64,000 nt of DNA, taken from assembly GCA_019429305.1 (NCBI GenBank), contig JAHYIR010000009.1:1837-65836 (forward strand), read 5' to 3'. A model generated the notes under the pieces. It was not told where the DNA came from, ran no database searches, and was given only the letters and a program-made list of their open reading frames with translations. Source of the stretch: Candidatus Cloacimonadota bacterium. Its GTDB lineage: Bacteria > Cloacimonadota > Cloacimonadia > Cloacimonadales > JAJBBL01. A program made the translations under genes and the position numbers. This document shows, piece by piece, positions 4,208-57,600 of this stretch. Position 1 is the stretch's first letter; every line of letters begins with the position of its first letter.

Positions 4208-4217
4208 AATTGAGAAA

Positions 4218-4243
4218 GAGAGGTAGAGTAACCTCTACCTCTC
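4218..4243 (+). terminator. Perfect 11-bp hairpin between the repeat-protein gene and the M14 gene (terminator or attenuator candidate)
   Basis: GAGAGGTAGAG-taac-CTCTACCTCTC starts 10 nt after the stop at 4207. It is followed by A-rich rather than T-rich sequence, so it is not a textbook intrinsic terminator. Confidence 0.45.
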
Positions 4244-4271
4244 TAATAAAAAACTTTAAAGGAGATATGTT

Positions 4272-6608: not shown

Positions 6609-6629
6609 ATTAGATATTCCGGAGGATAA

Positions 6630-12832: not shown

Positions 12833-15230
<2,398 letters not shown>

Positions 15231-18215: not shown

Positions 18216-18281
18216 AATGAAGAACAGAGTCATTGTTCTTAAGTTTTTTGACAGTTAGATACTTTTATAGCGAGTGATAAA

Positions 18282-25343: not shown

Positions 25344-25696
25344 TGGTGGAGGTGGCGGGAATCGAACCCGCGTCCAGAGATAAGCCAAAAGCTGACTCTA
25401 CATACTTAGTTGTTTTTAGATCTCACTTGCTATGCAGGGAAACAATCAAACCAGTTGCAAAGAAGCCAGTCACTAATCTTAGCAGTTGAACCATGACGAC
25501 TCTCAACTGAGCAGCTGTCAATTACGACGCTTATTATCCAACCGACAGCAAATCGGACATAAACGTAGCAGCTTATGCTGCTAATGCATAATCATAGTTT
25601 GCATTTACATTTAAGTATCACCGTGTTTTACGGGTAGGTAATCTCCCCGGTATGCATCAACAATCCTCTATATCCCTGTCGAAACCGATCACCCCC
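25344..25696 (-). ncRNA. ssrA: tmRNA (SsrA), 353 nt
   Basis: The minus strand starts with GGGGGTGATCGGTTTCGACAGGGATATAGAGG and ends with GGACGCGGGTTCGATTCCCGCCACCTCCACCA, a tRNA-Ala-like acceptor/T-arm with CCA. The internal tag frame is GCA AAC TAT GAT TAT GCA TTA GCA GCA TAA = ANYDYALAA-stop (rc of 25573-25602). Confidence 0.95.
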
Positions 25697-36652: not shown

Positions 36653-36857
36653 CTTTTCCTCCTCTCTTTTACAAGATATTACACTTCATTCTTTTGTCAA
36701 AGAGTTTCTTAAGCAGCGAACCCCTTGAGTTAATTCTCATTTCCTTCGTAGTTCATATTGATTAACGCATCTTTGTTTATTAGTATCATTCATCTGACCG
36801 AGTTTAAGAGAATTTTTATAAACTCAGGTTTCTAACTCCTTATCCGACAAATTTTTG

Positions 36858-36885
36858 TTGACAATTTGATAAGGTTAAGTATGGT
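36858..36885 (+). promoter_or_regulatory. Sigma70-like promoter candidate (TTGACA, 16 nt spacer, TATGGT) for the oxidoreductase / ether-lipid operon
   Basis: TTGACA at 36858-36863 and TATGGT at 36880-36885, about 110 nt upstream of the ATG at 36994. Pattern match only. Confidence 0.3.
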
Positions 36886-36993
36886 AGTAATATGTGAGAA
36901 ATACTGACTTAAATATACTTAGGATGAAGTGAAACAAATATTTTATAATGACCTAGGATATTGTCAGCTGTTGGGAGTTTATTGGGAGTCTTA

Positions 36994-38028
36994 ATGAGTA
37001 TCTTAAGAATGGGATTAATAGGGTGCGGAAGAATATCCGGAAAGCACTTCGAAGCAGCAGAACAATTGGAAAATGCTGGATTTGTTACCTGTGCCGACAT
37101 CATACCAGAAAGAGCTGCAGCTGCAGCTGAGAAATACAATTTATCATCCTATTACACAGACTATCATGAAATGTTAGCCAAAGAGAAGATTGATCTGGGA
37201 GTTATTTGTGCTCCGAGCGGCTTACATCCCGAGATTGGCATAGCAGTAGCCACGAAAAAGATTCATGTCTTAACAGAAAAACCGATGGCAATAAATCTAA
37301 AATCTGCAGATGAACTGATTGAAACTTGTGAAGCTAACAAAGTTCATCTCTATGTTGTAAAGCAGAATCGCTTGAATCCAACAATGTTGCTATTAAAGAA
37401 TGCAATACTTAAGAACAGGTTCGGCAAGATATATTTAGTACAATCTAATGTTTTTTGGCAAAGACCTCAAACTTACTACGATATGGCAGATTGGCGGGGA
37501 ACATGGCAATATGATGGTGGAGCATTTCTCAATCAGGCGAGTCATTATGTTGATGCTCTTTATTGGTTGATTGGACCTGTTAATTCAGTTATGGCAGAGT
37601 CTGCTACTATGGCGAGGAAGATCGAAGCAGAAGATACCGGTGTTGCCTTATTAAAATTTAGTAATGGAGTTATAGGTTCAATCAATGTAACCATGCTCAC
37701 TTATCCTAAAAATTACGAAGGTTCTATAACAGTAATAGGTGAAAAAGGAACAGTAAAAGTAGGGGGCATAGCATTAAATAAGATAGATAAATGGGAATTT
37801 GAAGATTATGATGATGATGATCGTTTACTGGAAGAGGCAAATTATCAACCATTGACAGTCTACGGTTCTGGTCATTTACCCTATTACTTAAATGTGATAG
37901 AATCACTTAAAGGAAAGACTAATCCTTATACTAATGGACGTGATGGTAGAAGTTCCTTGGAAATCATCTTAGCTTTTTATGAATCGGTTAAAAGTGGGAA
38001 GAAGATAAATCTTCCTTTAAAAGTATGA
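36994..38028 (+). CDS. Gfo/Idh/MocA family NAD(P)-dependent oxidoreductase
   Basis: ORF is 36961..38028. The ATG at 36994 gives MSILRMGLIGCGRISGKH, an N-terminal Rossmann GxGxxG. EKP and the C-terminal alpha/beta domain are typical of the family. Confidence 0.8.
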   Translation: MSILRMGLIGCGRISGKHFEAAEQLENAGFVTCADIIPERAAAAAEKYNLSSYYTDYHEMLAKEKIDLGVICAPSGLHPEIGIAVATKKIHVLTEKPMAINLKSADELIETCEANKVHLYVVKQNRLNPTMLLLKNAILKNRFGKIYLVQSNVFWQRPQTYYDMADWRGTWQYDGGAFLNQASHYVDALYWLIGPVNSVMAESATMARKIEAEDTGVALLKFSNGVIGSINVTMLTYPKNYEGSITVIGEKGTVKVGGIALNKIDKWEFEDYDDDDRLLEEANYQPLTVYGSGHLPYYLNVIESLKGKTNPYTNGRDGRSSLEIILAFYESVKSGKKINLPLKV

Positions 38029-38073
38029 ACTAGAGTAGACAAACTACAGTACTTCAAATAAGAGAGGTAGAAT

Positions 38074-38964
38074 TTGGTATTGGAAAGATATTTTGAGTCA
38101 AGACAATTGATTGTTGATAAGGCACTAAGGGACTACTTAACGCCGATAAAAACCTATCCTGAGCAGTTATATGAGGCAATGCACTATGCTCTTTTTTCTG
38201 GTGGTAAACGGTTGCGCCCGATACTTTTTTTTGCTGCCTATGAAATGTTAAAAGAGAAGAAAAATGCCGCAATATTACAGTCTGTTGTACCTGCTGCCTG
38301 TGCTTTAGAAATGGTTCATACAGCATCCTTGATACATGATGATCTGCCCATTATCGATAATTCGGATTTAAGGCGTAACGAACTAAGCTGTCATAAGAAG
38401 TTTGACGAAGCAACAGCAATCTTAGCGGGAGATGCTTTGCTGACTAAAGCATTTGAGGTTTTAACCGATATAAACAATGCTTCGAAGGCAATAAGCTGCA
38501 TCGGAGTATTGGCTCGAGCTGTTTCTACTCGAGGAATGATCGGTGGTCAGACTGTTGACGTATTAGTTACTAGTACCAAAGCAAGAATAAATGTTCTGAA
38601 GTATATCCATATGAAGAAGACAGGATCGTTATTACAAGCAGCTATGGACTTAGCTTGTGTTTTAGCTGACGCAGAGGAGAATGTTATCTTAGCGTTAGAG
38701 AGTTTTGCTCTCAATGTCGGATTAGCATATCAGGTTATAGATGATATTCTTGATGAGATTGGAACGAGTGAGATATTGGGCAAAGAGCCCGGAGAAGATG
38801 CTCGTAACAACAAAGCTACTTATGCAGCGATACTTGGCTTAGATAAAGCGCGGAAAACTGCTGAGAAATTGCTGGATGATTCTTACAAACTGATTAAAAA
38901 TATGCCTAACAACGAAGTTTTAGTCGAATACATTTACATGATAAGAGAAAGAATCCCGATATGA
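38074..38964 (+). CDS. Short-chain trans-polyprenyl diphosphate synthase, predicted geranylgeranyl diphosphate synthase
   Basis: TTG start after AGAGAGG. The FARM is LIHDDLPIIDNSDLRRN and the SARM is QVIDDILD. Residues just upstream of the FARM are small (HTASLIHDD) rather than the aromatic residue of FPP synthases (E. coli IspA has YSLIHDD), which favours a C20 product. Confidence 0.8.
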   Translation: MVLERYFESRQLIVDKALRDYLTPIKTYPEQLYEAMHYALFSGGKRLRPILFFAAYEMLKEKKNAAILQSVVPAACALEMVHTASLIHDDLPIIDNSDLRRNELSCHKKFDEATAILAGDALLTKAFEVLTDINNASKAISCIGVLARAVSTRGMIGGQTVDVLVTSTKARINVLKYIHMKKTGSLLQAAMDLACVLADAEENVILALESFALNVGLAYQVIDDILDEIGTSEILGKEPGEDARNNKATYAAILGLDKARKTAEKLLDDSYKLIKNMPNNEVLVEYIYMIRERIPI

Positions 38965-39788
38965 AAAATTATCTTCTAATTATAAGACCGCTTAACTGTC
39001 TGTTCATTGGATTTGCTGTCCTTGTTGGAGGTTGGCTCAACACGGAAGTTGAGAGCTATCCTGTACTATTAATAGCAATGTTAGTAGCGATGTTAATCGG
39101 TGCAGGTGGTTATGTAATTAACGATTTCTTCGATATAAGAATTGATTCGATCAATAAACCTCATCGGTTATTACCCAGAGGGGTATTCAAACCGGAATTT
39201 GCTTTCATGTATGCCCTCTTCTTATTCATGTTCGGGATATCGATCAGCATTTTTACGATCAACTTCTGGGCGATTTTTATAGCAGTTCTCAATTCGATAC
39301 TTCTCTATCATTATGCCAAATCTTTGAAGAACACAATTCTTTGGGGTAACTTGGTTATCTCTTATATCACAGGTAGTGCTTTATTGTATGGTGCCGTAAT
39401 TACTAACAATATTCTTAATATACTGCCTCTTATTATATTTACAATTTTGTATACTTTCGTGAGAGAGATCATTAAAGATGCTGAGGATGAAAAGGCAGAT
39501 AGAATAATCGGTGTTAAGACTTATGCTACAGCATTCGGACAAAAGCAAGCTGTTTATATTTCTCTAATACCAGCTTTACTTCTTGCTATCAGTTTGTATA
39601 TTTATTATATTGAGAAACTAATATCGAAAAGTCTCTTCGAGATAGTTATATTAGTCTATTTGATCCCTTTGATTTTTATTTACCTATATCTGCTAATCAA
39701 GATTAATCCGGAAAGGTTACACCGCAGCTCAGTATTTATTAAGATCCATATGTTGATTTTATTGATAACATATATCATAGTAATTTGA
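38961..39788 (+). CDS. UbiA-family prenyltransferase resembling digeranylgeranylglyceryl phosphate (DGGGP) synthase
   Basis: The ATGA start overlaps the GGPPS stop. There are about 8 TM helices. The first Asp-rich motif is NDFFDIRIDSINKPHRLLPRG (archaeal DGGGPS pattern NDyfD.e.D.iNkP.RPiPsG) and the second is KDAEDEKADRIIGVKT. It sits between GGPPS and GGGPS. Confidence 0.75.
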   Translation: MKNYLLIIRPLNCLFIGFAVLVGGWLNTEVESYPVLLIAMLVAMLIGAGGYVINDFFDIRIDSINKPHRLLPRGVFKPEFAFMYALFLFMFGISISIFTINFWAIFIAVLNSILLYHYAKSLKNTILWGNLVISYITGSALLYGAVITNNILNILPLIIFTILYTFVREIIKDAEDEKADRIIGVKTYATAFGQKQAVYISLIPALLLAISLYIYYIEKLISKSLFEIVILVYLIPLIFIYLYLLIKINPERLHRSSVFIKIHMLILLITYIIVI

Positions 39789-39844
39789 GGTTGAGAAACT
39801 TTTTACCTCAGATAGTTCAATAATAAATTAAGGATAGAATTGGG

Positions 39845-40636
39845 ATGAGTACTTTAGACAGTATTAACGGAAATTTGTATTCTAAAGATCAGAATGACAA
39901 GATCTACTCACAAATCTTACAAATGCCCAAACCTGCCTATTTTGTGCTTATAGATCCTGATAAAACTGGAGTTAAAGAATCTTTAAGCTTAGCAGTTTTA
40001 GCAGAACAAAAAGGTGTTGATGGGCTTTTAATAGGGAGCAGTTTGCTTCTTCACGACAATCTAGATAACTGCTTGCGTGAAATGAAAAAACTGGTCAAAA
40101 TCCCTATCATAATCTTTCCTGGTCTTTTGAATACTTATTCACCATTAGCTGATGCTATATTATTCCTTAATATGATCAGCAGCCGTAATGCTCAGTTATT
40201 GATAGGTGAGCAGGTAAGAGCAGCTCCTTTGCTAAAGAAATTAGGGTTGGAGTCGATAAGTACTGCCTACATACTCATTGAATCGGGGAAATTGACGTCT
40301 GTCCAATATGTCAGCAACAGCTTGCCCATTCCGAGAGACAAACCCGATATCCTAATAGCCCATGTTTTAGCAGCTGAGTATATTGGGATGAAGATGATCT
40401 ATTTAGAAACTGGTAGTGGAGCCAATCAACCAGTTCCTCTGGAAATGATAAAACAGGTAAAGTTAACAACAGATCTGCCGATTATCGTCGGTGGAGGAAT
40501 AAGAAAAGCTGATACAGCATCAGAAATTGCTGCAGTCGGAGCAGATATTATTGTAACCGGTACAGTCATGGAAGACGAAGAGAATCACCAGTTATTAGCT
40601 GATTTTGTGGAAGCAATTCATAGATGGCGAAAATGA
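39845..40636 (+). CDS. Geranylgeranylglyceryl phosphate synthase (GGGPS/PcrB family, TIM barrel)
   Basis: FVLIDPDK near the N-terminus, then GVDGLLIGSS, IIFPG, IYLETGSG, and the phosphate-binding IIVGGGIRKADTASEIAAVGADIIVTG. Length and order match the PcrB/GGGPS family. Confidence 0.85.
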   Translation: MSTLDSINGNLYSKDQNDKIYSQILQMPKPAYFVLIDPDKTGVKESLSLAVLAEQKGVDGLLIGSSLLLHDNLDNCLREMKKLVKIPIIIFPGLLNTYSPLADAILFLNMISSRNAQLLIGEQVRAAPLLKKLGLESISTAYILIESGKLTSVQYVSNSLPIPRDKPDILIAHVLAAEYIGMKMIYLETGSGANQPVPLEMIKQVKLTTDLPIIVGGGIRKADTASEIAAVGADIIVTGTVMEDEENHQLLADFVEAIHRWRK

Positions 40637-41430
40637 TAGATATCCATTCCCATATACTTCCAGGTGTTGATGATGGTTCACCTGATTTAGAGACTTCTTT
40701 GCAATATCTTAAATTGATTCAGGATAGCGGGGTCTCTGATCTTTTTCTTACACCACATTATATTCCTGGCGAGTATAATAATACCAAAAATAATATTCTG
40801 GATAAATGTTATTCTTTGAAGTTAGCAGCAGAGCAGGAGAATATCACCATCAGACTACATTGCGGATTGGAGCTCTATTTGACCGATTCGCAAGCCCAGA
40901 ATATTAACTTTAGTGATTTTCGTATGGGAGATAGTGACTACATATTGGTCGAGACCGCACTCAACGGTTTTCCAATGAATCTATTAGACGTACTATTTTA
41001 TATGGTCAGAAAGGGTTATAAACCAATATTTGCTCATCCGGAAAGGTATGTAAACATAATTGAAGATATCTCAGTTGCCGAAGACCTCATATATCGAAAT
41101 GTCTATCTACAGGCAAATTCCGGTAGTTTTTTAGGTCATTATGGTCCGACTATTTCTAAGACAGTCTGGAAGTTGTTTCATAGAGGATTTTTGCATTTCA
41201 TAGCTTCTGATGAACATTGTATCAGCAAATCGTATTCTTTATTGAAACTCAGAAATATGCTCTTGGATAATTATTCAGAAGAGCAAATAAATACCCTCAT
41301 ATATGATAATGCGGCGAAGATTATTTCTAATGAAAAAATTGCTCTATTTAATCAAAAAATATCACCTCTAAACGAGAGAAAGAATTCGGGAAATATTCTG
41401 CATAAATTGCTAAGTTTTCTTGAGAGATGA
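40633..41430 (+). CDS. PHP-domain metal-dependent phosphoesterase (CpsB/YwqE-like)
   Basis: ORF-track start is 40624. The ATG at 40633 forms an ATGA overlap with the GGGPS stop and gives the family-typical MIDIHSHILPGVDDGS, followed by TPHY, FAHPERY and ASDEHC metal ligands. Confidence 0.8.
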   Translation: MIDIHSHILPGVDDGSPDLETSLQYLKLIQDSGVSDLFLTPHYIPGEYNNTKNNILDKCYSLKLAAEQENITIRLHCGLELYLTDSQAQNINFSDFRMGDSDYILVETALNGFPMNLLDVLFYMVRKGYKPIFAHPERYVNIIEDISVAEDLIYRNVYLQANSGSFLGHYGPTISKTVWKLFHRGFLHFIASDEHCISKSYSLLKLRNMLLDNYSEEQINTLIYDNAAKIISNEKIALFNQKISPLNERKNSGNILHKLLSFLER

Positions 41431-42410
41431 ATAAAAGTATCTTACTAACAGGTGCAACCGGATTTATTGGTCGGAATGTAGCCCGAGTATTAGCTTCTAA
41501 AAAACAAGATTTCGCAGTACTGGTCAGACCCGGTACGAATAGTACCAAATTAAAAGATTTAACCGATAAATGTGAGATAGTTGAACTGGATTTGTCATCA
41601 GTTGATTCTTTAAAGGATTTTTTAGATAAGAGCAAATTCGAGACGGTAATTCATATTGGTGCTTTACGAGGTGGTCGTAAATACCCTCAGAAAACCTATT
41701 ACGATACGAATGTCAAAGCTACTGAACAGATCATTTTAAACTGTCTCAAGAATGATTCCAAATTACTTTTTTGTTCGTCTGTAGGTGTCTATGGTGCTAT
41801 TCCTCAAGAATTGCCTGCAAATGTTAATACGGTATATCAATCTGATAATTTTTATCATTACACAAAGATTAAAGCAGAGTCTATCATCAAAAAATATGCT
41901 CTTTCCGGACTAAAGAGTGTCATCTTGAGACCGACAATAACTTATGGTGAAAATGATTATGGGTTTCCCTATACATTAGTGAAGTTGATTCACAGAAAGC
42001 TTCTTCTTTTACCTGATCTGGCAATCAGAATCCACTTAGCGCATATTAATACTGTCGTTGAAGCATTCTACAAGCTTGCAGTAGAGGATTATACCGGGAA
42101 TAAGATCTACAATATTGCGGATCCTTCACCAGTTAAACTAAAAGAACTTGTGGATTTCATCAGTCATAGATTGAGAGACAATCCTTATCCTGAAAACAGA
42201 TATATCTCTGCCAGAAAATTTCGCAAAATAACAACTTTATGCCAAAGATACGGATTCAACAGCTTACATACCAAGCTCAGATTGATAAATTATAGCTGGT
42301 TCTATGATGTTACACCAAGCTACAAGGAGCTGACCATCCAACCCAGAAAAACCATTCCTGAATTCAAGATTGTTATAGACTGGTACAAGAAAATTCATCA
42401 TATCAAGTAG
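41427..42410 (+). CDS. Extended SDR, NAD-dependent epimerase/dehydratase family
   Basis: ATGA overlap with the upstream stop. ILLTGATGFIGRNV is the Rossmann motif and YHYTKIKAE is the catalytic YxxxK. Confidence 0.8.
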   Translation: MNKSILLTGATGFIGRNVARVLASKKQDFAVLVRPGTNSTKLKDLTDKCEIVELDLSSVDSLKDFLDKSKFETVIHIGALRGGRKYPQKTYYDTNVKATEQIILNCLKNDSKLLFCSSVGVYGAIPQELPANVNTVYQSDNFYHYTKIKAESIIKKYALSGLKSVILRPTITYGENDYGFPYTLVKLIHRKLLLLPDLAIRIHLAHINTVVEAFYKLAVEDYTGNKIYNIADPSPVKLKELVDFISHRLRDNPYPENRYISARKFRKITTLCQRYGFNSLHTKLRLINYSWFYDVTPSYKELTIQPRKTIPEFKIVIDWYKKIHHIK

Positions 42411-42420
42411 GTATTTAATA

Positions 42421-43263
42421 ATGGCTATCCCGATAATAACCAATTGGAAGAACTATTTTACAGATGAGAATGAAGGGCTCGGCTCTTCTTACGAAAGAGT
42501 AATTATTAATCAGCTTCTGGAGAGGGTCTGCGATCAGTATAGTATTCAAAAGGTTTTAGAGGCACCTCTGTTTGGATTCACCGGTTTATCAGGTATTAAT
42601 AGTATGAATCTAGCGCTTAAAGGTAAAGAAGTTGCCCTGATAGATAGTAATAGTGAACGTTTAGTAATGGTCGAAACCATCTGGCAGGAACGAAAACTAC
42701 CTGTTGATATCAAATACTCACAAGATTTTTCGATCTTGCCTTATGATGATGCAGAGTTTGATCTCTGTTGGAATTTTTCAGCCCTTTGGTTTGTTAAAGA
42801 TTTAAGCAGTTTTCTCGCGGAGTTTAACCGCCTGGCTAAGAAAGTGATTTTATTGATAGTTCCTAATAGAAGCGGTTTAGGATTCATTTTTCAGTCTCTA
42901 AGCAGTTCCAGGGGTTATAAAGATATAGTTAATACTAAATGGATCAGACCTGCTTGTTTTTCCAAGATTTTATTAGATCTTGGTTGGAAAGAAGTCGAAC
43001 ATGGTTTGATAGATTGCCCTCCTTGGCCTGATATAGGGATGAAAAAAGAAGTTTTAGCCAAGAAACTTTTCTTAAGTTTTTTGCTTGATAGGCATACTGA
43101 GCAACAGCATCAGAATTCTATAATGGACTATTATCGTGGAGATGATGACCAATTCCCCGAAAAAATGATGAAATACAATCGCTTGGAAAAAAAACTGCCA
43201 AATTTATTGAAACGGTTTTGGTCACATCATCATTATTATCTATACGTAAAGAAAGGCAGGTAA
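42421..43263 (+). CDS. Methyltransferase-fold (class I SAM-MT-like) protein with atypical motif I
   Basis: VLEAPLFGFTGLSGINSMNLALKGKEVALIDSN resembles motif I plus the acidic loop. FDLCWNFSALWFV resembles the motif II/III region. This is a weak, by-eye assignment. Confidence 0.45.
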   Translation: MAIPIITNWKNYFTDENEGLGSSYERVIINQLLERVCDQYSIQKVLEAPLFGFTGLSGINSMNLALKGKEVALIDSNSERLVMVETIWQERKLPVDIKYSQDFSILPYDDAEFDLCWNFSALWFVKDLSSFLAEFNRLAKKVILLIVPNRSGLGFIFQSLSSSRGYKDIVNTKWIRPACFSKILLDLGWKEVEHGLIDCPPWPDIGMKKEVLAKKLFLSFLLDRHTEQQHQNSIMDYYRGDDDQFPEKMMKYNRLEKKLPNLLKRFWSHHHYYLYVKKGR

Positions 43264-43334
43264 TAGATATTTGACTGAGGAAAGATTATTATCTCTAAAG
43301 ATAATAGTCCGATTCTTATTTATCTCGAACTGAT

Positions 43335-44336
43335 ATGAAAAAGAAGATACTGACTATAGTAATAGGCACATTAATCGGCATTATTTTTACAGCTATTTGG
43401 CTGCAATTAGTTGATCTCCGTACGATCTCCCAGATGATCAAAGATTTGAAATTGCAGTATGTGATCATTAGTATACTATTTTATTTATCTGCTTATTTTA
43501 TTCGTTCTTTAAGATGGAATCTCCTGCTTAAAAGAGTTCAACCGTTATCAAAAATGAGATCTTATCTGATCATGATGGCAGGAAACTTCACTAATTATCT
43601 GATTCCTCTCCGAGTTGGAGAATTGATGCGCTGCTATTTCATCAAGAAAATGCACGGAACCAGAATGACGAAAACTCTACCATCTGTTTTTGTTGATAAA
43701 CTCTTTGACTCGATCGGGATTTTGTTCGTTTTATTGCTTGTCCCGCTTCTTTCGGTCTCTTTACCTGCTACTTTGAATATCTTGCTAATATTGATTTCTT
43801 TGCTATTGATAATTGGTTGTATAATCCTCATATCAGCCATTTATGCCGAAAGCAAGATAGTAAGTTTGTTAAAAAAACTCTTTTTTTTCATTCCGACTAA
43901 ATATGAGGTTAAGTTAGATGAGACTCTATCTCTGTTTGTTGAAGGTTTAGCAGTTTTCAAAGACCATAAGCAACTGCTGCTCCCGGTGATACTCTTTTCG
44001 ATCATCGCCATCTTCTTCGATAGTTTTTTCTTTTTTGCTCTCTTTTTAGCATTTGGAATTAGCATAAACTATTTTTACATTTTACTCGGTTATACTCTGA
44101 TCTACCTGTCCTATATAATTCCTCATCCTCCAGCTCAGTTGGGTAGCAATGAGTTATTGATGTTTCTTATCTTTGCAGCCGGTTTTGGCATGCAGGCAGA
44201 TAAAGCAGGGGCCATTATGCTTTTTTCTCATATCTTGACAGGATTGATCATTGTAACTATCGGGTTAATCTCTTACAGTTACAGTGGAGTACAATTATTG
44301 ACGATAATTAATAAAGGAGAAGTTTTAAATGAGTAA
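43335..44336 (+). CDS. Flippase-like (UPF0104 / MprF-type transmembrane domain) membrane protein
   Basis: About 8 TM helices. The N-terminal pattern is LQYVIISILFYLSAYFIRSLRWNLLL...MAGNFTNYLIPLRVGELMRCYF, typical of the lysylphosphatidylglycerol-synthase TM (flippase-like) family. Confidence 0.65.
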   Translation: MKKKILTIVIGTLIGIIFTAIWLQLVDLRTISQMIKDLKLQYVIISILFYLSAYFIRSLRWNLLLKRVQPLSKMRSYLIMMAGNFTNYLIPLRVGELMRCYFIKKMHGTRMTKTLPSVFVDKLFDSIGILFVLLLVPLLSVSLPATLNILLILISLLLIIGCIILISAIYAESKIVSLLKKLFFFIPTKYEVKLDETLSLFVEGLAVFKDHKQLLLPVILFSIIAIFFDSFFFFALFLAFGISINYFYILLGYTLIYLSYIIPHPPAQLGSNELLMFLIFAAGFGMQADKAGAIMLFSHILTGLIIVTIGLISYSYSGVQLLTIINKGEVLNE

Positions 44337-45333
44337 CGAAAAGAACAGGATTGCACTTCTGGAAAAATTAAAGACCGACAAAGAGAAGATCTTGCAAGAA
44401 TTAAGAAAAGCGATAATAGGACAGGATAAGGTAATCGAAGAGGTTATGATAGCCCTCTTTGCTAAAGGGCACTGTCTGGTTGAAGGTGTACCCGGATTGG
44501 CAAAGACTATGTTGATCTCCTCACTTGCTAAAGCGTTGAATCTCAAGTTCAGCCGGATTCAATTTACACCCGACTTAATGCCTTCCGATATTACCGGAAC
44601 CGATATTCTGGCGGAAAGTAAGGCAGATGGGAAAAGATATTTCGAATACATCAAAGGTCCTATTTTTTCCAATATCATCTTAGCCGACGAGATCAACAGA
44701 ACACCCCCCAAGACCCAATCCGCTCTCCTACAGGCAATGCAGGAATATCAGGTAACCGCCGGAAACAGCACCTATAATCTTGATCAACCGTTTCTGGTAT
44801 TGGCTACGCAAAACCCCATTGAACAAGAAGGCACCTATCCACTACCGGAAGCACAATTAGATAGATTTATGTTTAATATCAATATCTACTATCCTTCTTA
44901 TGAAGAAGAACGTGAAATAGTTATCAAAACTACCAGTTCTGATCCGATTAATATAGAACCGGTGCTTACCGCTGACGAAATACTTGAAATGCAGAAAATG
45001 ATCCTTACTTTGCCAGTCAGTGAACATGTTCTTGATTATGCCGTAAAACTTGCCCGGGCTACCAGACCTGATTATCCGGAGGCACAAGACTTTATTAAAA
45101 GATGGGTTAGTTGGGGTGCCGGTCCTCGTGCTTCTCAATATCTGGTCTTAGCAGCCAAAACCAAAGCTGCTCTCGATGGGAGAGCGACTCCAGCGGAAGA
45201 AGATGTCAGAAGGGTAGCGGTGATAGTTCTGCAACATAGAGTGATCGTTTCCTTTGCTGCTGAAGCTGAAGGTATGAAAGCCAAGACTGTCGTGGAGAAA
45301 CTTATCAAGCATCTGGATGAATCAGCTAAATAG
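44329..45333 (+). CDS. MoxR-family AAA+ ATPase
   Basis: The start overlaps the upstream stop by 8 nt. Motifs are IIGQDKVIEEVMIALFAKGHCLVEGVPGLAKT (Walker A), ILADEINR (Walker B), ATQNPIEQEGTYPLPEAQLDRF and GAGPRAS. Confidence 0.9.
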   Translation: MSNEKNRIALLEKLKTDKEKILQELRKAIIGQDKVIEEVMIALFAKGHCLVEGVPGLAKTMLISSLAKALNLKFSRIQFTPDLMPSDITGTDILAESKADGKRYFEYIKGPIFSNIILADEINRTPPKTQSALLQAMQEYQVTAGNSTYNLDQPFLVLATQNPIEQEGTYPLPEAQLDRFMFNINIYYPSYEEEREIVIKTTSSDPINIEPVLTADEILEMQKMILTLPVSEHVLDYAVKLARATRPDYPEAQDFIKRWVSWGAGPRASQYLVLAAKTKAALDGRATPAEEDVRRVAVIVLQHRVIVSFAAEAEGMKAKTVVEKLIKHLDESAK

Positions 45334-45384: not shown

Positions 45385-48150
45385 TTGAACTGGATATTTT
45401 TGTCTTTCTTTAGAGTGAGATTACAGATACTCTTTATATTCATTATTCACGTAGTCCTATCTATCACTTTTATTAGTGCGATCAGCATAGACGATGTCGA
45501 ATTCTGCTACTATAGAGAATTATGGCAATTGTTGAATCGTTATGAACCGGAGATCAGGGAACTGGCCATAAACGATCCTCAGAATTCTTTACTCTATGAT
45601 GTTCTGGAAGATATGGCAATCGCGAAACAAGACACCTTAGCTTTTATAAATATTCTTGAACAACGAGTGATCAATCTTCAAGACTTTAACGATGCCTTTC
45701 GGTTACTCAAATTTCTCAAAGAAAAATATACACTATCAACAGTGGCATTAATAGAGAAGAGATCACTAATAGAAGAGATATTTGATTCGACAGGTGATAA
45801 AAACCTCATCAAATGGGCTATGGGAGATATTGAGGAAGAAGAATTGTATCATGAGATGTCTCAGCTGCCATCTTATCCGCAATTCTTTGATAATTATATC
45901 CAATCATTTGTAAATGAAATTGCAGTCGAACGAAGTGATAGTTTAAGGGTCAATCTCTCTGAGGATTTCTATCGAAAATTCCCCGCATCACGCTGGCAAG
46001 ATACAAATATCTACTATCTTCTCATTTCACTGCTCAATCTGGAAAAATACACTGATGCTATTGAGTTGATTGATTCCCAAAATGACTATTCTCCTGCTCT
46101 CTCTTTTCTGGTCTCGGGAATTTTGACCGACTCAAATCTCCGCAAATCCTTTCATAATGGAGCAGATAATCAAGAACTTTTAGATAAAGCTCTTTTTATC
46201 ACAGAAAATGCTGCATTTCCATTTGATACTCAAACCATCTCAGTGCTATATCAAAAATGGGATGATCGGCAGTGGGAAAATAAAAGAGCTCTCCAGAAAG
46301 CCAGAATAATATATCATCAGCTGATATCTGAATATCATTACTGGGGAGATGAAGATTTGATCGCTGGAATACTTGAACAACCGTATGAGCTATATCAAAC
46401 CGGCTTAGATCTTTTACACTTCATAAATCCATTAAACAATGATTTTGGTGAAATAGCCGAGCATAAATATTGGTTGGGAAGATATTCTGTACTATTCGAT
46501 GATGAGACCAAACTCGGAAAAACAGCCGAATACTTTATCGATTGCCTGATAGCTAGTGCTCCCAGAAAGCGGTTTGATGAGTCAGCTCTCAAATATCTCA
46601 AGTATCTTCATGAGCGATCCGGAACAAAAGATGATCTGATGACTTGGAGCAGAAAGATCAAGAACTACCGTGGTCCCATCTTTTCTGATGTGACAGAAGA
46701 GAGTGGATTTAGCGATTTACGTTTCACCAGAATAAGTATTGGTGATTACAACAATGACGGCAAAACAGATCTGCTCTTCAACGGGCGTCGTTTATATCGT
46801 AACGATGGGAATTTTGATTTTACCGATGTCACGGAAGAAGCCGGTATTGTTAATCACTCTTTTGTTGGGGGTCTTTGGGCTGATTTCGATAAAGATGGTC
46901 TTTTGGATTTTGTGGCCCTTTCTTCATCAAGGGAAAATCCCGGAGATACACTTTTCAGAAACATTGGTGATGGCAGCTTTCAAATGCTGGATTCTCCGGA
47001 GTATCGGATCAATAATCATTCACCAACAGAAGGTGCTGCCTGGGTAGATTTTGAGAAAAACGGTTACCCCTCACTTTATACGGCTAATTATGAAATGTGG
47101 CAGGTTCAACCCGGCTTTCGTGATTTCTTTTGGTATAACGACCAAGGCAGATTCATAGATCAAACAGCCCAATTAGGTTTCTTAGCTCCTGAATACACCG
47201 ATGATCCCGGTTTAGCTGGAAGAGGTGTCTCTCCTGCTGATTATAACAATGACGGCATTCAATCAATATTTGTCAGCAATTATCGTCTGAATCGTAATTA
47301 TCTCTGGGATTATTCTAATGGAGTTTTTAAAGATCATGCCGCCCTGAAAGGAGTTGCCGGGCATAAGTACCGCATCCCTGATCATCTTGGCTATTACGGA
47401 CACACCATTGGTGCTGACTGGGGTGACTACAACAATAACGGATATTTAGACCTCTTTATCGCCAATTTAGCACATCCCAGATTCATAGAGTTTTCCGATA
47501 TCAGTATGCTGCTCCGTAATGATGGTCTCGCTGCCAGAGTTATCGGAGATACTGCTATCGTTTATCATAACTTTACTGATGTCACCAAAGAGGCGGGGAT
47601 AACCTTCGATGAACTTCATTCTGACCCCAACTGGTTTGATGCCGATAATGACGGCTTTCTCGATCTCTATATTACCTCTGTGTATGAAAATGACCGTAGC
47701 TATCTTTATCTTAACAATCTTGATGGCACATTTACTGATATCACGTGGCTCTCCGGAACTCGGGTTTATAATGGCTGGGGTAATTCCGTCGCTGATCTTA
47801 ATGGAAACGGTAGATTAGATCTGATCGTCGGTAGCGGAAATGGAGTCAGAAAATTTCGCAATGATACTGATAACGAGCATACAAGTGTTTTTTTCAAACC
47901 TTACTGGGATGGGGAAGAGGTCAAGATCATAGAGAGAGAGGATTGGCATTCTTCGATCCCCAATTCTCCTGCTTTTGGCATAAAAGTTCAGGTAAAGATC
48001 GAATTACCTGATGGTAGTCAAAAAACCCTGATTAGAGAACTTAACGGGGGTAAAGGCACAACCTCACAAAACGACCAGTTCCTCCATTTTGGTTTAGGTG
48101 AAGGTACACTCTTGGAAGCTAAGATCTGGCAAGCATCACAGCAACAATAG
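45385..48150 (+). CDS. Secreted CRTAC1-like protein: about 430-aa helical N-terminal region, FG-GAP/VCBS repeats and an ASPIC/UnbV C-terminal domain
   Basis: The start is uncertain: TTG at 45385 or GTG at 45415, and both give a hydrophobic signal-like N-terminus. There are repeated GDYNNDGKTDLLF / ADFDKDGLLDF / ADYNNDGIQSIF / GDYNNNGYLDLF / DADNDGFLDLY / DLNGNGRLDL calcium-binding FG-GAP loops. The C-terminal NGGKGTTSQNDQFLHFGLG is the UnbV_ASPIC signature. Confidence 0.8.
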   Translation: MNWIFLSFFRVRLQILFIFIIHVVLSITFISAISIDDVEFCYYRELWQLLNRYEPEIRELAINDPQNSLLYDVLEDMAIAKQDTLAFINILEQRVINLQDFNDAFRLLKFLKEKYTLSTVALIEKRSLIEEIFDSTGDKNLIKWAMGDIEEEELYHEMSQLPSYPQFFDNYIQSFVNEIAVERSDSLRVNLSEDFYRKFPASRWQDTNIYYLLISLLNLEKYTDAIELIDSQNDYSPALSFLVSGILTDSNLRKSFHNGADNQELLDKALFITENAAFPFDTQTISVLYQKWDDRQWENKRALQKARIIYHQLISEYHYWGDEDLIAGILEQPYELYQTGLDLLHFINPLNNDFGEIAEHKYWLGRYSVLFDDETKLGKTAEYFIDCLIASAPRKRFDESALKYLKYLHERSGTKDDLMTWSRKIKNYRGPIFSDVTEESGFSDLRFTRISIGDYNNDGKTDLLFNGRRLYRNDGNFDFTDVTEEAGIVNHSFVGGLWADFDKDGLLDFVALSSSRENPGDTLFRNIGDGSFQMLDSPEYRINNHSPTEGAAWVDFEKNGYPSLYTANYEMWQVQPGFRDFFWYNDQGRFIDQTAQLGFLAPEYTDDPGLAGRGVSPADYNNDGIQSIFVSNYRLNRNYLWDYSNGVFKDHAALKGVAGHKYRIPDHLGYYGHTIGADWGDYNNNGYLDLFIANLAHPRFIEFSDISMLLRNDGLAARVIGDTAIVYHNFTDVTKEAGITFDELHSDPNWFDADNDGFLDLYITSVYENDRSYLYLNNLDGTFTDITWLSGTRVYNGWGNSVADLNGNGRLDLIVGSGNGVRKFRNDTDNEHTSVFFKPYWDGEEVKIIEREDWHSSIPNSPAFGIKVQVKIELPDGSQKTLIRELNGGKGTTSQNDQFLHFGLGEGTLLEAKIWQASQQQ

Positions 48151-51635: not shown

Positions 51636-54600
51636 ATGAGTTTTAAAGGAGATCTTATGAAAACCGTACTGTTAGTTTTTTTCTTAACCCTATTTTCGCT
51701 GACAATAAGCTGGGCTTATGAAGTTCAGTTTGGCGAGAGACCGGAAATAGATTTAACAAGAGTTTCCGATGATGCATTTCATCAAACCCATATCCTTATC
51801 CAATTCAGTTCGGATCTGACGGGTCATCTTGATAATAATCCGGTTAGATATGACAGGGATGGGTATGCCATATTTGACTTACCAGAAATTGACGAACTAA
51901 ATCGTTATTTCAGTGTTAAAGAGGTAAAACCTCTTTTTGACAGCCCTGCCTTAGATAATGAATACAAAGACCGTCACCGTGCCTGGGGCTTTCATCTCTG
52001 GTATGAGCTTTATTTTTCGGAGAAGCAGGACATAAGGGAAGCTGTTGCTGCCTATAAAGAATTGGAATTTATTGAAGTAGCTGAACCTGAATATAAGAAA
52101 GTAAGATATTTCGCTGAGGACAGAGATGATCCGACTTACCGTTGGACTCCCAATGACCCATATTTCTCTACCCAGTGGCATTACCATAATACAGGGCAGC
52201 AGAGTGGCACTCCCGGAGCCGATATCAAACTCGTGACAGCTTGGGATATTGAAAAGGGACATACTGCTGTTATTGTTGCCATCATTGACGGTGGTATTCA
52301 AACTAATCATCCCGATATTGCAGCTAATATGTGGAGTGGCATCGGATATAATTTTGTCGATAATAATACAACCATCACAGCTGATGATCATGGAACTCAC
52401 GTAGCAGGAACTGTATCTGCAGTTAATAATAATGGCGTAGGAGTAGCCGGAGTAGCTGGTGGTTCAGGTTCTGGAAATGGGGTGCGTTTGATGACCTGTC
52501 AGGTTTTCAGGGGTATATCCCAGGGTGGTTTCAGTACAGCTCCTGTATGGGCAGCTGATAATGGTGCTGCCATTTCCCAGAACAGTTGGGGATATCAAAA
52601 TTCAGGAGTTTATAATACACCTGATCTGAATGCTATTGATTATTTCAATGCTAATGGTGGTGGAACTGTTTTAAACGGCGGAATTACTATCTTTGCAGCC
52701 GGTAATGATGATGACAACGGTGCTTGGTATCCCGGTTACTATAGCGGAGCATTTTCCGTTGCTGCTACGACCAATACAGATACAAAAGCATATTATTCCA
52801 ACTATGGAACCTGGATAGATGTGTCAGCACCCGGTGGTGAAGTAATCAGTGTTGCAGCCCGAGGTGTAAGAAGCACAATAGCAGGGAGCAGTTATGCTTA
52901 TTATCAGGGAACATCGATGGCTTGTCCGCATGTATCAGGAGTTGCAGCACTCGTGGTTTCCTATGCTCATCGGAACGGATTTACTCTCAATAATTCTAAT
53001 ATCAAAAATATTTTACGTGATTCTACCGATAATCATTATGGGGTCAATCCCGGATATACTGGTCAGTTAGGAACCGGACGGCTCAATGCTCATGCTGCTT
53101 TAGTCGAAACAATGACTTATATTGGTTTAGGAGTTCCTAATCCCCAGAGTTTTACAGCTACATCAGCCGGTTTACATCAAATAAACCTTAACTGGGTCAA
53201 GAACACTGATAACAATAATGTTATGGTTGCTTGGTCTGCAACAGGAACTTTTGGTACTCCTGTTGATGGAACTGTATATTCTGCAGGAACAAATATTCCC
53301 GGTGGCGGAACGGTTTTATACAGAGGCAGTGCTACCTCCTACAATCATACTGGACTGAATTCGTGGACTACATATTACTACAGGGCTTTTTCTTATAATT
53401 CTTCTAATGAGTACTCTTCCGGACTGAATGCCCAGGCAACAACTCTTTATGAACCATTCACGCTACCCTTTTCCGAGAATTTTAATGCCTCAACTACACT
53501 ACCCGATTTTTGGCAGATCATAGATCATCAGGGTAACGGTCAGGTCTGGCAATTTGGTACAACTTCCGGTGGTTTGAGCGGTACTACAGGGAACTATGCT
53601 TATCTGAACAGTGATGCTTATGGCTCAGGCAATACCCAGAATGCCGACTTGGTTACTCCAACACTAGATTTGAGTAACAATTATAATGTTAATCTTTCCT
53701 TTACCCATTATTTCAGGCAGTATCAAAATGTTTCTACAGCAACTTTATCTTATAGTATCAATAATGGAACAACTTGGACAACTATTCAATCCTGGACATC
53801 AACTACAGGCAATCCAGTATATTTTAGCCAAACCATTCCTGCCTTGGAGGGACAATCACAGGTTAAATTCAAATGGAATTACACAGGTACTTGGGGTTAT
53901 TATTGGTGTGTAGATGATATCCTTATCACCGGTGATGAATATGTTTTATTACCAACTATAGATGTTACTCCGGTAAGTTTTTTCGAAGAATTGAATACCG
54001 GCGAATTCACTACAGAGCAAATGACGATCAGTAATGATGGAGAAGCTGATCTTGAATATAGTATCAGTGTTGTGGAAACACGAAGAGCTAATACTGATGA
54101 CAGCTTTATGCATATCGATGGTGCTGCTGATCAAACAACACGAGGAATTACAGAGATCCATTATGATAACGGTTATTCAGGTAACGGAGTCGGTGCCGGA
54201 GGAGCAGCTTATTGGATCTCAGCTGTCCGTTTTACTGCTGATGAATTAGCTGCCTATTATGGAGACTATCAAATTTTGGGCATTAAGTATCATATCCGAA
54301 CTTCTCAATTCACTAATGTGACAGTTAAGGTTTGGGAAGGTGGCAGTTCCGGTAATTCCGGAACTGAGATATATTCACAAGACGTAACATCGTCTGTAGT
54401 AATAAACGACTGGTCAACTCATATCCTGACAACACCGGTCTCATTGATTACCGGTAACGAATATTGGATAGGATATTCCATAAATGCAACAGGAGGCAGC
54501 CCGGCTAGTATTGACAGTGGTCCTTTAGTAGCAAACAAAGGGGGGTGGATCTATTGGAGTAATTCATGGACGCAGATCACTGCCTTTGGTTTCAATACAA

Positions 54601-57600
54601 ATTGGTGTATTCGCGGCTTGCTTTATGACTCTTCAGGTTCTTGGCTGTCGGTATCTCCGATAAGTGGAATAGTACAACCGGGTCAGAGTGAGATAGTTGA
54701 TGTCTCTTTTGTTTCTATAGGACTACCAGCCGGATCAGTGCACACAGCAGATATTGTCATTGCTAACAATGCCGGTGCTGATGTTGTTGTTCCAGCCACT
54801 CTTAGTATTTTTGGTATGGTACTGAACCCACCATCAAATCTGTCAGCAGTAGCCGGAGATGGTGTTGTGAATTTAAGCTGGGATGCACCGTTAGTAAGAT
54901 CATTACTTGGATATAATGTCTATCGCAATGGTGTGCAAATAAATCCTGAAATAGTCATCGGCACTGAGTATCCTGATAATACAGTTGTGAATGGAACGAC
55001 CTATTCGTATTATGTGACGGCAGTTTATACAGAAGGCGAGTCTGAAGCATCAAACATAGTACAGGCAACTCCTCTGGCAGCACCGATAAATCTATCTGCA
55101 GTACCGGGAGCTGGATCTGTCTTCCTGGATTGGGATGCACCTCCAATAAGAACATTGTTATCATACAATATTTATCGCAACGGATCATATATAAATAATG
55201 TCACAACTCCAGAGACGGAGTACACTGATAGCGGATTAGGGAATGGTGTCACTTACAGTTATTATGTAACCGCTGTTTATCAAACTCATGGCGAATCAGT
55301 TCCGTCCAATACTGTAGAAGTTACTACACTCCAAGGAACAGTAGCAGCACCGACATTTAATCCACCTCAACAAGCTGAACCGTTCTATCAGGAGTTTACC
55401 GTAACTATTTCATCAGCAACTCCGGCAGCTACTATCTGGTATAAAACGGCAGAGGGTAATGACTGGACTGCTGGGAACTCTGTTAATATAACTCAAAACA
55501 CTGAGATCTGGGCAATGGCAACGAGAAATAACTGGGCAGATTCAGAAATAAGTTATGCCAGTTATGAGCTGAAAGTAGTTACTCCGACCTTTGATCCGGT
55601 AGAACAAGGTACACCATTTGATGAGCCGATCGATCTGGAACTGATAACTACTACTTCAGGAGCAACAATACTTTATAGAATTATTAGTTCTGATGGGGTC
55701 AGAAGAGAAGAATGGCAGGAATATATCGATCCGATCTACCTGTTCTATAATTCATATATTGAATTGGAGACCAAAGCTATAAAAGCTGGTTGGTTAGAGA
55801 GTGATATAGCTTATGGTTACTTTGCAGTCAATCCGGGTCAGGCAGGTATTATGATCAGTAATCTGGAGCAAATATACTCAAGTGAACCTTTAATTGTCTC
55901 AGTAACTACAAATCCAACGGGACTTGATTATATTGTGACATATAATGGTTCACCTGAACTACCTGTTAATGTCGGAAACTATTTAGTAGAGGTTACAATT
56001 GACGATCCATATTATGAAGGAACCGAACAAGCACTACTCCAGATCTTCCCGTTCGATATTACTGTCACAGCCAATCCGCAAAGTAAAACTTATGGAGAAG
56101 CGGATCCCCTCTTCACCTATAGTGTTGATCCGGTACTCTTTGCCGGAGATGGATTTACCGGCACTCTGACCAGACAGCTTGGAGAAAATGTAGGTCAGTA
56201 TGAGATATTGCAGGGCACTCTCACTGCCGGGGATAATTATAGAATAACTTACAACTCAGATTATCTGACTATATCACCGGCTACCGCTGCTATCGAGATC
56301 TATGATCTCAGTCAGGTCTATGGTTCTGTAGATGATGTGACAGTAGTCACAACACCATTGGGACTAAATTATACTGTCACTTATGACGGCTCTCCTACCC
56401 TTCCTGTTAATGTTGGAACTTATGAGGTCGAGGTGGTCATCAATGAATTGAACTATGTAGGATCAGAAACAGCTTGGTTAGTTATAGATCCTTTAGCAAT
56501 AACCGTAACAGCCGACCCTCAAACCAAGATATATGGAGAAGCTGATCCGGTATTAACCTATGGAGTTAATCCGGCACTAATTGTTGGTGATAGCTTTACC
56601 GGTTCTTTAACCCGACAATTAGGTGAAGATGTTGGTCAATATGAGATTCTGTTGGGTACTCTGACTGCCGGAGATAATTACACTATATCTTATGTCTCCG
56701 ATTATCTGACCATATCACCGGCAACTGCCACAATCGAGATCTATGATCTCAGTCAGATCTATGGTTCGGTAGGAGATGTAACAGTTGTTACAACACCATT
56801 GGGACTAAATTATACTGTCACTTATGATGGATCACCTACCCTTCCTGTTAATGTTGGAACTTATGAGGTCGAGGTGGTCATTAATGAATTGAACTATGTA
56901 GGATCAGAAACAGCTTGGTTAGTTATAGATCCTTTAGCAATAACCGTAACAGCCGATCCTCAAACCAAAATATATGGAGAAGCTGATCCGGAGTTTACTT
57001 ATCAATATAGTCCATTATTAGTTGAAGGAGATACCATTGTTGGTGAATTATCGAGAGCGATCGGTGAAGATGTCGGTCAGTATGAGATCCTGCAAGGAAC
57101 TCTGACGGCAGGAGCAAACTATACAATTATCTATCAATCAGACTATCTGACAATTTCACCAATGGCAATAACGGTAACAGCCGATCCTCAGAGCAAGGTT
57201 TATGGCGAAGAAGATCCTCCACTTACTTATACTGTAGAACCTGAATTAATTGCTGGAGATCAGTTCAGTGGTAGTCTTGTAAGAGAAGTCGGCGAAGAGG
57301 TCGGTGAATATCAAATTCTCCAGGGAACTTTATCAGCCGGAGATAATTACTCGATAAACTATATACCAAATGTATTCGAAATTTTATCTATGGTCGATCT
57401 GTCAGCTCCCGTAGTAACTATCTCAATAGAAAGCAATACAGTGATTCTGAGTTGGGAACATATTACCGGAGCGAATTCTTACAAGATATATTCAACAGGA
57501 GATCCCTATGTTCCAGAGGAAGAATGGGATTTAGCAGGTACTACTGCCAATAATGAGTTTACAGAACCCCTCACTACAAGGAAATTCTATCGAGTTATAG

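Follow-up and report, generated by a model that had tools for sequence, protein, structure and literature searches.

We analysed a 64,000-nt stretch of DNA from a Candidatus Cloacimonadota bacterium (assembly GCA_019429305.1, contig JAHYIR010000009.1, positions 1,837 to 65,836 of the forward strand), referred to here as the window, in which genes for archaeal-type ether-lipid synthesis are directly followed by five genes that a first-pass annotation had taken for a candidate tailoring and export module. Mapping of open reading frames (ORFs) and domain searches place nine plus-strand genes in one block, which is preceded by a probable promoter region:

36653 to 36960, no strand: divergent intergenic region, probable promoter region (308 nt separate the first gene from an ORF on the minus strand that ends at 36652)
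36961 to 38028, plus strand: GFO/IDH/MocA oxidoreductase, WlbA-like (hereafter GFO), opening the conserved block (both the N- and the C-terminal GFO_IDH_MocA domain of Pfam)
38074 to 38964, plus strand: short-chain trans-prenyl diphosphate synthase of the GGPPS/FPPS type (hereafter GGPPS; PF00348, E 5.5e-57; NCBIfam FPP synthase subfamily 298 bits, CrtE-type GGPPS 266 bits)
38961 to 39788, plus strand: UbiA-family prenyltransferase, DGGGPS homologue (PF01040, E 2e-35; best NCBIfam model DGGGPS, 191 bits, under its cut-off)
39845 to 40636, plus strand: GGGPS of the PcrB family (PF01884, E 6e-45; TIGR01769, 216 bits, over the cut-off)
40633 to 41430, plus strand: PHP-fold metal phosphoesterase of the CpsB/YwqE family (hereafter PHP; PF19567, structure 3qy6)
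41427 to 42410, plus strand: extended short-chain dehydrogenase/reductase (SDR), first half of the SDR-MT unit (PF01370, E 3e-32)
42421 to 43263, plus strand: divergent class I methyltransferase-fold protein (MT), second half of the SDR-MT unit (Methyltransf_11, AlphaFold2 model)
43335 to 44336, plus strand: PplT / LPG_synthase_TM (MprF flippase-domain) polytopic membrane protein (hereafter PplT; PF03706, TIGR00374)
44329 to 45333, plus strand: MoxR-type AAA+ ATPase, closing the conserved block (AAA_3 PF07726, 212 bits; AAA_lid_2 PF17863, 57 bits)

Junctions and the ether-lipid genes

The genes of the window block are tightly spaced. The stop codon of GGPPS overlaps the start of DGGGPS, and the GGGPS stop codon (TGA, 40634-40636) overlaps the PHP start codon at 40633; a second in-frame ATG of PHP lies at 40624, and the alignment with YwqE begins at the methionine of 40633. 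PHP and SDR share an ATGA (41427-41430) as stop and start, 10 nt separate the SDR stop (42410) from the MT start (42421), 71 nt separate the MT stop (43263) from the PplT start (43335), and the MoxR start (44329) overlaps the end of PplT (44336) by 8 nt. All five junctions described in the first-pass annotation are thus found in the ORF map, and its five family assignments hold in Pfam and NCBIfam searches and, for the MT fold, in the AlphaFold2 model. Its span covered the five downstream genes correctly but left out a ninth conserved member, the WlbA-like oxidoreductase upstream of the lipid genes. A sigma-70-like match (TTGACA-16-TATGGT) is present at 36858-36885 in front of this gene; such matches are no commoner than in shuffled sequence, and since neither promoter nor terminator matches in the window exceed the shuffled frequency, the scan is silent for or against a single transcript. 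Rfam and tRNA scans returned nothing within the block.

GGPPS, DGGGPS and GGGPS form a triad of lipid genes with a precedent in the same phylum. According to main-text passages of Villanueva et al. (2021, ISME J, PMC7852524), GGGPS and DGGGPS genes are co-localised in Candidatus Cloacimonetes, the GGGPS homologue has geranylgeranylglyceryl phosphate (GGGP) synthase activity in vitro, and the GGGPS/DGGGPS homologues lead to unsaturated PG-archaeol in E. coli. GGGPS and DGGGPS of the window belong to the group shown to be active in these passages. There, the two synthases are treated together with polyprenyl synthases and a geranylgeranyl reductase (GGR) located elsewhere, and CdsA-dependent formation of PG-archaeol is proposed; Cloacimonetes are described as lacking CarS and a dehydrogenase for sn-glycerol-1-phosphate (G1P; egsA, araM), the source of G1P being an acknowledged gap. 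In the main-text passages and two supplementary files of this paper, we found no discussion of PHP, SDR, MT, PplT, MoxR or WlbA-like genes. GGGPS/DGGGPS genes are present in only about 24-30% of Cloacimonadota genomes according to the literature, a preprint giving 24% for GGGPS. Domain scans of block and window detected none of the canonical archaeal set, i.e. G1P dehydrogenase, CarS and CDP-archaeol head-group transferases.

The closest solved structures of GFO are 3q2k and 3q2i (E about 1e-113), which we take to be WlbA UDP-GlcNAcA 3-dehydrogenases of the Wbp nucleotide-sugar pathway, although the identities of these PDB entries could not be confirmed. A role of GFO as the missing G1P dehydrogenase was considered and dropped in view of this close homology.

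Recurrence of the block in related genomes

For comparison, an MT alignment was run against one genome per GTDB species, and 80 of the 170 loci obtained were analysed. Gene content was assigned by tblastn and ORF clustering, the ORF starts used in the gap statistics being estimates from alignments, and all related loci derive from metagenome-assembled genomes (MAGs) or metagenomes. The order GFO-GGPPS-DGGGPS-GGGPS-PHP-SDR-MT-PplT-MoxR is found again with proteins that are 35-65% identical (62-89% for MoxR), and order and tight spacing are repeated in about 60 independent related loci, which is far beyond chance. Across these loci, seven of the eight median gaps fall between -10 and +16 nt (GFO/GGPPS 16, GGPPS/DGGGPS 5.5, GGGPS/PHP -10, PHP/SDR -4, SDR/MT 2, MT/PplT 3 and PplT/MoxR -8 nt). 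The eighth, -49 nt for DGGGPS/GGGPS, is an artefact that arises because GGGPS of the window has an N-terminal extension of ~20-30 residues, which is missing in its relatives. We regard operon-level coupling of the block as highly probable.

Completeness was assessed in the 59 MT-anchored loci with at least 5.5 kb of sequence upstream of MT. The full triad plus module is present in 35 of them, eight carry GGPPS-PHP-SDR-MT-PplT(-MoxR), seven carry GGGPS-PHP-SDR-MT-(PplT)-MoxR, and about eight retain SDR-MT alone; GGPPS or GGGPS stands immediately upstream of PHP in 50/59. GFO was found in 31 related loci, solely with the complete triad. The flanks of the block vary by lineage, with at least seven upstream contexts (AI-2E/radical-SAM/A24, mutS-like sets, gyrBA and others) and at least six downstream contexts (among them FG-GAP, MarR-OsmC-thioredoxin, LVIVD, histidine kinase and pyrBC). 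On a rough neighbour-joining tree of MT, the full cluster is dispersed throughout, whereas the reduced forms are mostly confined to one clade or a few, with at least two or three clades for the GGPPS-PHP form. This distribution fits a nine-gene block that is probably ancestral in Cloacimonadota and underwent a few later losses.

Searches anchored on the lipid synthases gave the same picture. A reverse scan of metagenomes with a DGGGPS alignment, which carries the generic UbiA motif, returned at least 80 loci with seven close relatives among them: all seven contain the triad, and PHP comes after GGGPS in each one whose sequence extends far enough. Module genes are absent from the 73 remote UbiA loci, whose identity is at most 33% across most of the protein and up to 39% when shorter best segments are taken. 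A metagenome scan with a single DGGGPS protein gave no matches. The list of GGGPS homologues comprises the best 120 matches, down to about 50% identity, and the known positives L065 and L075 are not among the matches listed; GGGPS-anchored look-ups of two further loci (L164, L165) revealed the complete nine genes, the called genes abutting or overlapping. Furthermore, the MAG NIOZ-UU2 of Villanueva et al. (L005, scaffold NODE_23799) carries GGGPS-PHP-SDR-MT-PplT. Thus, the expectation that a seven-to-eight-gene order is conserved together with GGGPS/DGGGPS holds from either anchor.

Individual loci depart from the standard order. In L083, a gene for a secreted protein separates PHP from SDR-MT-PplT, and in L084 the triad and PHP are followed by an inverted cassette (15781-18171, minus strand) instead of SDR-MT-PplT. 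This cassette consists of genes for an SDR paralogue with 25% identity, for a protein of 141 aa without Pfam match and for a PplT with 35% identity, and it precedes the same DUF6754 gene as in L083. A tandem duplicate of SDR occurs in three loci (L055, L068, L079). What did not stand is the view that the five downstream genes form a single, inseparable module bound to the triad: SDR-MT can be found without the triad nearby and in the company of other polyprenyl or glycosyl systems, and the block is a composite of separable units, namely GGGPS-PHP, SDR-MT, PplT and MoxR.

Separable units downstream of the synthases

PHP belongs to the CpsB_CapC family (PF19567, 175.5 bits versus a cut-off of 27, E 1.6e-51) and matches the YwqE structure 3qy6 with an E value of 8e-28; its score of 100 bits against the NCBIfam Cps4B equivalog, which has a cut-off of 400, indicates that it is not that orthologue. 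All 15 sequences compared, those of the KSB1 type among them, share the metal ligands D3, H5, H7, H42, E80, E107, H135, H188, D193 and H195. PHP always stands behind GGGPS, or behind GGPPS in the variant loci, and this neighbourhood extends to other phyla: outside Cloacimonadota, GGGPS-PHP adjacency was present in five of six contexts examined. In KSB1, Zhuqueibacterota, a contig labelled Calditrichaeota and one unlabelled contig, the order is recA-recX-alaS-GGGPS-PHP followed by variable genes, GGGPS lying at about 4.1-8.7 kb and PHP directly after it (L162/L163, L166, L167, L168, L169); a Gemmatimonadota genome (L161) has alaS-GGGPS-SIS instead. The PHP proteins from outside Cloacimonadota are 27-31% identical to that of the window and have every metal-site residue in common with it.

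Fold and metal-binding residues are also those of the CpsB/YwqE tyrosine phosphatases, whose canonical partners are the bacterial tyrosine kinase (BY-kinase) CpsC/CpsD and capsule genes, whereas the partner of PHP in the window is GGGPS. Indeed, no BY-kinase or capsule genes were detected among roughly 40 window ORFs of >=120 aa that were scanned, nor in the annotated related loci. The suggestion of the first-pass annotation that PHP acts as phosphatase on GGGP or on digeranylgeranylglyceryl phosphate (DGGGP) thereby gains independent support from the GGGPS-PHP pair in other phyla, while the chemistry itself is a prediction. From the cross-phylum pairing, the intact active site, the missing kinase partner and the Bacillus precedent discussed below, we infer that PHP is a candidate prenylglyceryl-phosphate phosphatase.

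The SDR has a conserved TGxxGxxG motif (TGATGFIGRN near the N-terminus), and Y143 and K147 of its YxxxK motif are invariant in 19 sequences. HpnA (TIGR03466) is its best full-length NCBIfam model, scoring 77 bits against a cut-off of 368. A profile search of the PDB returned generic extended-SDR matches only: the best match of the family profile is 3wj7, a 'putative oxidoreductase' (88.6 bits), and NDP-sugar epimerases or dehydratases make up most of its 71 matches at E <= 1e-8. MT gave a weak but significant Methyltransf_11 match (E 3e-8), and its AlphaFold2 model (pLDDT 84, pTM 0.85) adopts the class I MT fold. Foldseek found 906 PDB matches to this model at E <= 0.001, the 50 listed all having the class I fold of S-adenosylmethionine (SAM)-dependent MTs, mostly small-molecule MTs, with no substrate-specific neighbour among them (TM about 0.5). 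The motifs EGLGSxYER, LEAPxFGFTGxSGINS, PPWPDIGM and WxHH are invariant in the family; the second of these is a longer loop that replaces canonical motif I, the GxGxG SAM loop, and the acidic residue D75, at the strand 2 end position for SAM, is invariant as well.

SDR and MT are adjacent in 79 loci, and an exhaustive profile search with MT, which yielded 690 cluster representatives, uncovered natural SDR-MT fusions (P0366, P0388, P0406, P0437, P0442, P0451). Fusions and adjacency together indicate that SDR and MT act as one unit. This unit habitually accompanies isoprenoid-carrier or envelope-modification genes. The 607-aa fusion P0366, which is 35% (SDR) and 40% (MT) identical to the window proteins, lies in the context radical-SAM (rSAM)/SPASM - SDR-MT - GT2 - polyprenyl synthase - GT2 - UbiA - FAD enzyme - Wzx, and two remoter fusions are found near GT2s, extra MTs, rSAM/SPASM proteins and the GT-C enzymes PMT_2 or YfhO. 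In Calditrichota (L025/L026, 9038-15936), an unfused SDR-MT pair is followed by a GT2, a double GT2, PMT_2 (GT-C) and a polyprenyl synthase; these MT sequences nest within the Cloacimonadota diversity on the MT tree, which hints at horizontal transfer. The pair persists without the triad nearby both here and in Cloacimonadales loci. The mycobacterial decaprenyl-phospho-arabinose route and three-component GT2/flippase/GT-C glycosylation systems likewise combine a polyprenyl synthase, a UbiA-type transferase, a phosphatase and SDR-type redox chemistry for a lipid used outside the cytoplasm, and the contexts of the SDR-MT fusions resemble this pattern. However, the Cloacimonadota block has no GT2, GT-C or DprE1-type flavoenzyme, and its UbiA protein behaves as DGGGPS.

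PplT matches PF03706 with 138 bits (cut-off 33.4, residues 9-310) and TIGR00374 with 118 bits (cut-off 43). It is present in 61 of the 80 MT-anchored loci, usually directly behind MT, and missing from one clade (L030, L031, L036, L040). In L046 (7833-8948) and L047 as well as in L065 (10839-11555) and L075, a gene is inserted between MT and PplT, encoding either a DUF362 plus 4Fe-4S protein or a second, canonical class I MT. According to the published PplT/UPF0104 literature, a translocation activity has only been proposed for stand-alone members of the family, most prokaryotes have a single PplT, and PplT domains are often fused to glycosyltransferases. The earlier idea that the membrane protein is a flippase agrees with published PplT/UPF0104 operons: gpgSDF of P. 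aeruginosa, hexSDF of C. difficile and clsB-ybhN of E. coli likewise encode a synthase and one or more tailoring enzymes followed by a PF03706 protein. These systems handle diacylglycerol-based lipids and employ a glycosyltransferase/deacetylase or cardiolipin synthase, whereas the block described here would pair an isoprenoid ether core with a phosphatase and SDR-MT.

MoxR always closes the block, in most loci with a start codon inside the gene before it. MoxR ATPases usually have VWA proteins as partners. Nevertheless, no VWA/DUF58 partner lies next to MoxR in the window, where an FG-GAP/ASPIC protein follows, nor in the other loci, where MarR-OsmC-thioredoxin, LVIVD, histidine kinase or pyrB genes are found downstream. 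A 700-aa BatA plus VWA_2 protein is encoded behind PHP in a KSB1 locus (L168, 6354-8489) and on the unlabelled contig (L169, 5907-8021), which makes an old adjacency of GGGPS-PHP to a MoxR/Bat locus a plausible reason for the position of MoxR. As a member of the candidate module, MoxR is thus borne out by synteny, but nothing ties it to lipid chemistry.

A possible processing route, its alternatives and its significance

We propose that the block specifies a dephosphorylate-modify-flip pathway for prenylglycerol lipids analogous to the Bacillus PcrB/YvoF pathway, a reading to which we assign a probability of roughly 50%. The nine genes at 36961-45333 would constitute one operon that makes an archaeal-type prenyl-glycerol ether lipid and subsequently processes the product. 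GGPPS would provide geranylgeranyl diphosphate (GGPP), from which GGGPS and DGGGPS would form GGGP and DGGGP, as shown experimentally for homologues. PHP would then strip the glycerol phosphate to leave a neutral prenylglycerol, as a dedicated counterpart of the 'non-specific phosphatase' step in the Bacillus PcrB pathway. SDR and MT may function as a redox-plus-methylation unit at the head end thus freed, or on a moiety attached to it, and the PplT-type protein would, judging by family precedent, carry the product to the outer leaflet. The presumably co-translated MoxR protein could serve as assembly or metal-loading chaperone, or could simply be an inherited neighbour. The roles given to all five downstream proteins are predictions. 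On this view, a bulk phospholipid is a less likely end product than a carrier or specialised lipid, and the absence of CarS from Cloacimonetes is compatible with a route that bypasses CDP-archaeol.

A close functional parallel is Bacillus subtilis PcrB-YvoF-LhaT, in which heptaprenylglyceryl phosphate (HepGP), a product of the PcrB family, is dephosphorylated, acetylated at the free hydroxyl and used as a carrier that crosses the membrane, phosphatase and flippase not being assigned (PMC12345273). The later steps of the Cloacimonadota block would follow the same logic. The systems differ in that Bacillus uses a C35 monoether, an acetyltransferase and a 'non-specific' phosphatase encoded at three loci, whereas the window block would yield a C20 mono- or diether and unites a dedicated PHP candidate, a PplT candidate and, where Bacillus has YvoF, SDR-MT within a single operon; the Cloacimonadota block showed no homologue of YvoF or LhaT. 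Another close system is that of Candidatus Cloacimonetes in PMC7852524, whose co-localised synthases come from the same phylum and, in NIOZ-UU2, precede the same downstream genes.

Several observations speak against the proposed pathway. CpsB/YwqE enzymes are known as protein-tyrosine phosphatases, not as lipid phosphatases. The glycine-rich loop of MT is non-canonical, and variants of the block with GGPPS-PHP-SDR-MT-PplT-MoxR have neither GGGPS nor DGGGPS at the locus. The presence of SDR-MT at loci that have no triad nearby means that an ether lipid is not necessarily its substrate, and since most prokaryotes have a single PplT, the window copy may be a general flippase. The WlbA-like first gene together with an epimerase-fold SDR could mean nucleotide-sugar chemistry. 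Finally, removal of the phosphate conflicts with the PG-archaeol route as set out in the passages of Villanueva et al. (PMC7852524).

Nucleotide-sugar chemistry is the basis of an alternative that we consider unlikely, namely that GFO, SDR and MT act on a nucleotide sugar or lipid-linked sugar, that a glycosyltransferase encoded elsewhere transfers this sugar, once modified, onto the ether lipid or polyprenyl phosphate, and that PplT flips the resulting glycolipid while PHP recycles or primes the lipid phosphate. The closeness of GFO to 3q2k/3q2i, the prevalence of NDP-sugar epimerases and dehydratases among the SDR profile matches, the GT2, PMT_2 or YfhO and Wzx genes flanking SDR-MT fusions and the Calditrichota pair, and the frequent fusion of PplT domains to glycosyltransferases would all fit. 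However, the conserved Cloacimonadota block lacks a glycosyltransferase throughout the roughly 60 loci, SDR has its best full-length matches in 3wj7 and HpnA, neither of them a defined sugar enzyme, and the fold search with MT revealed no preference for sugar MTs.

It is quite improbable that PHP is instead a true protein-tyrosine phosphatase acting on a pathway enzyme or another target, with MoxR and perhaps PplT as housekeeping neighbours by descent. Membership of PHP in the CpsB/YwqE family, the single PplT of most prokaryotes, the far stronger conservation of MoxR than of its neighbours and the BatA/VWA gene behind PHP in two loci are in line with such a role, yet neither the window nor the loci examined contain a BY-kinase, SDR-MT fusions occur naturally in lipid or glycan contexts, and gene order and overlapping starts survive many flank changes and deep divergence, which neutral inertia rarely achieves. 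A role in substrate supply, in which PHP and/or SDR deliver G1P to GGGPS in place of the missing G1P dehydrogenase, is slightly more improbable still. PHP would free G1P from a phosphodiester, e.g. the phosphatidylglycerol (PG) head group, or a GalE-type SDR would invert C2 of glycerol-3-phosphate via dihydroxyacetone phosphate. Retention of the GGGPS-PHP pair across phyla and the epimerase fold of SDR with its conserved catalytic Tyr and Lys could be explained in this way, but characterised CpsB/YwqE enzymes are phosphomonoesterases, SDR-MT is also found without GGGPS nearby, and a fused MT has no role in G1P formation. Furthermore, the lack of egsA and araM with its acknowledged gap in G1P provision would call for such an activity, but E. 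coli forms G1P-based archaeal lipids without a dedicated gene, as reported in the same passages (PMC7852524).

Beyond the block, the window encodes many very large secreted proteins (1124-10106, 21257-25108, 45385-48150 and 51636-57623). Type IX secretion C-terminal sorting domains are present in the products of 1124-4207 and 4272-6608, and a FlgD_ig domain in that of 6630-10106; the set includes two C25 gingipain-like peptidases, one M14 carboxypeptidase, a 1995-aa S8 peptidase with MBG repeats and the FG-GAP/ASPIC protein. In Porphyromonas, A-LPS anchors type IX secretion cargo. The WlbA/WbpB-like gene at 36961 may by analogy be linked to the type IX-type secreted proteins of the window, as A-LPS is made by the Wbp pathway in Porphyromonas (PMC4031482). 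Other features are a thiamine pyrophosphate (TPP) riboswitch at 151-243 on the minus strand (RF00059, 61.9 bits), a tmRNA at 25344-25696, which marks the window as bacterial, and a tyrosine recombinase of the phage-integrase family (XerC/D-like; 12833-13735, minus strand) that adjoins an IMP dehydrogenase gene. Two neighbouring genes at 16797-20225 on the plus strand, selA and selB, encode selenocysteine synthase and the corresponding elongation factor, so that the organism probably makes selenoproteins.

Taken together, the genes behind the lipid synthases are a real, conserved and, as far as we found, undescribed extension of the Cloacimonadota ether-lipid genes; the first-pass annotation knew of no pathway with this combination, and our literature search returned no published description. 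The block is best filed under operons of the type 'lipid synthase + tailoring enzymes + PplT' and under the PcrB prenylglycerol pathway. It offers candidates for the phosphatase and for the translocase, two steps to which no protein is assigned in the carrier-lipid pathway of Bacillus PcrB, and defines an uncharacterised SDR-MT unit whose members in polyprenyl-linked envelope systems number in the hundreds. The GGGPS/DGGGPS genes of Cloacimonetes are the main genomic argument for bacteria that bridge the 'lipid divide' with mixed membranes. A broader and more doubtful possibility is that the 'archaeal' GGGPS/DGGGPS of FCB bacteria serve no mixed bulk membranes at all but a dephosphorylated, redox- and methyl-modified prenylglycerol, which PplT would flip to the outer leaflet as carrier or envelope lipid; the CpsB-type PHP would then be the missing dedicated phosphatase from KSB1 to Cloacimonadota, and SDR-MT a new lipid-tailoring pair shared with other polyprenyl envelope systems. 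In any case, the conserved extension by a candidate phosphatase, SDR-MT and flippase shifts the targets to be sought in lipidomes of these bacteria to neutral or modified prenylglycerols rather than PG-archaeol.

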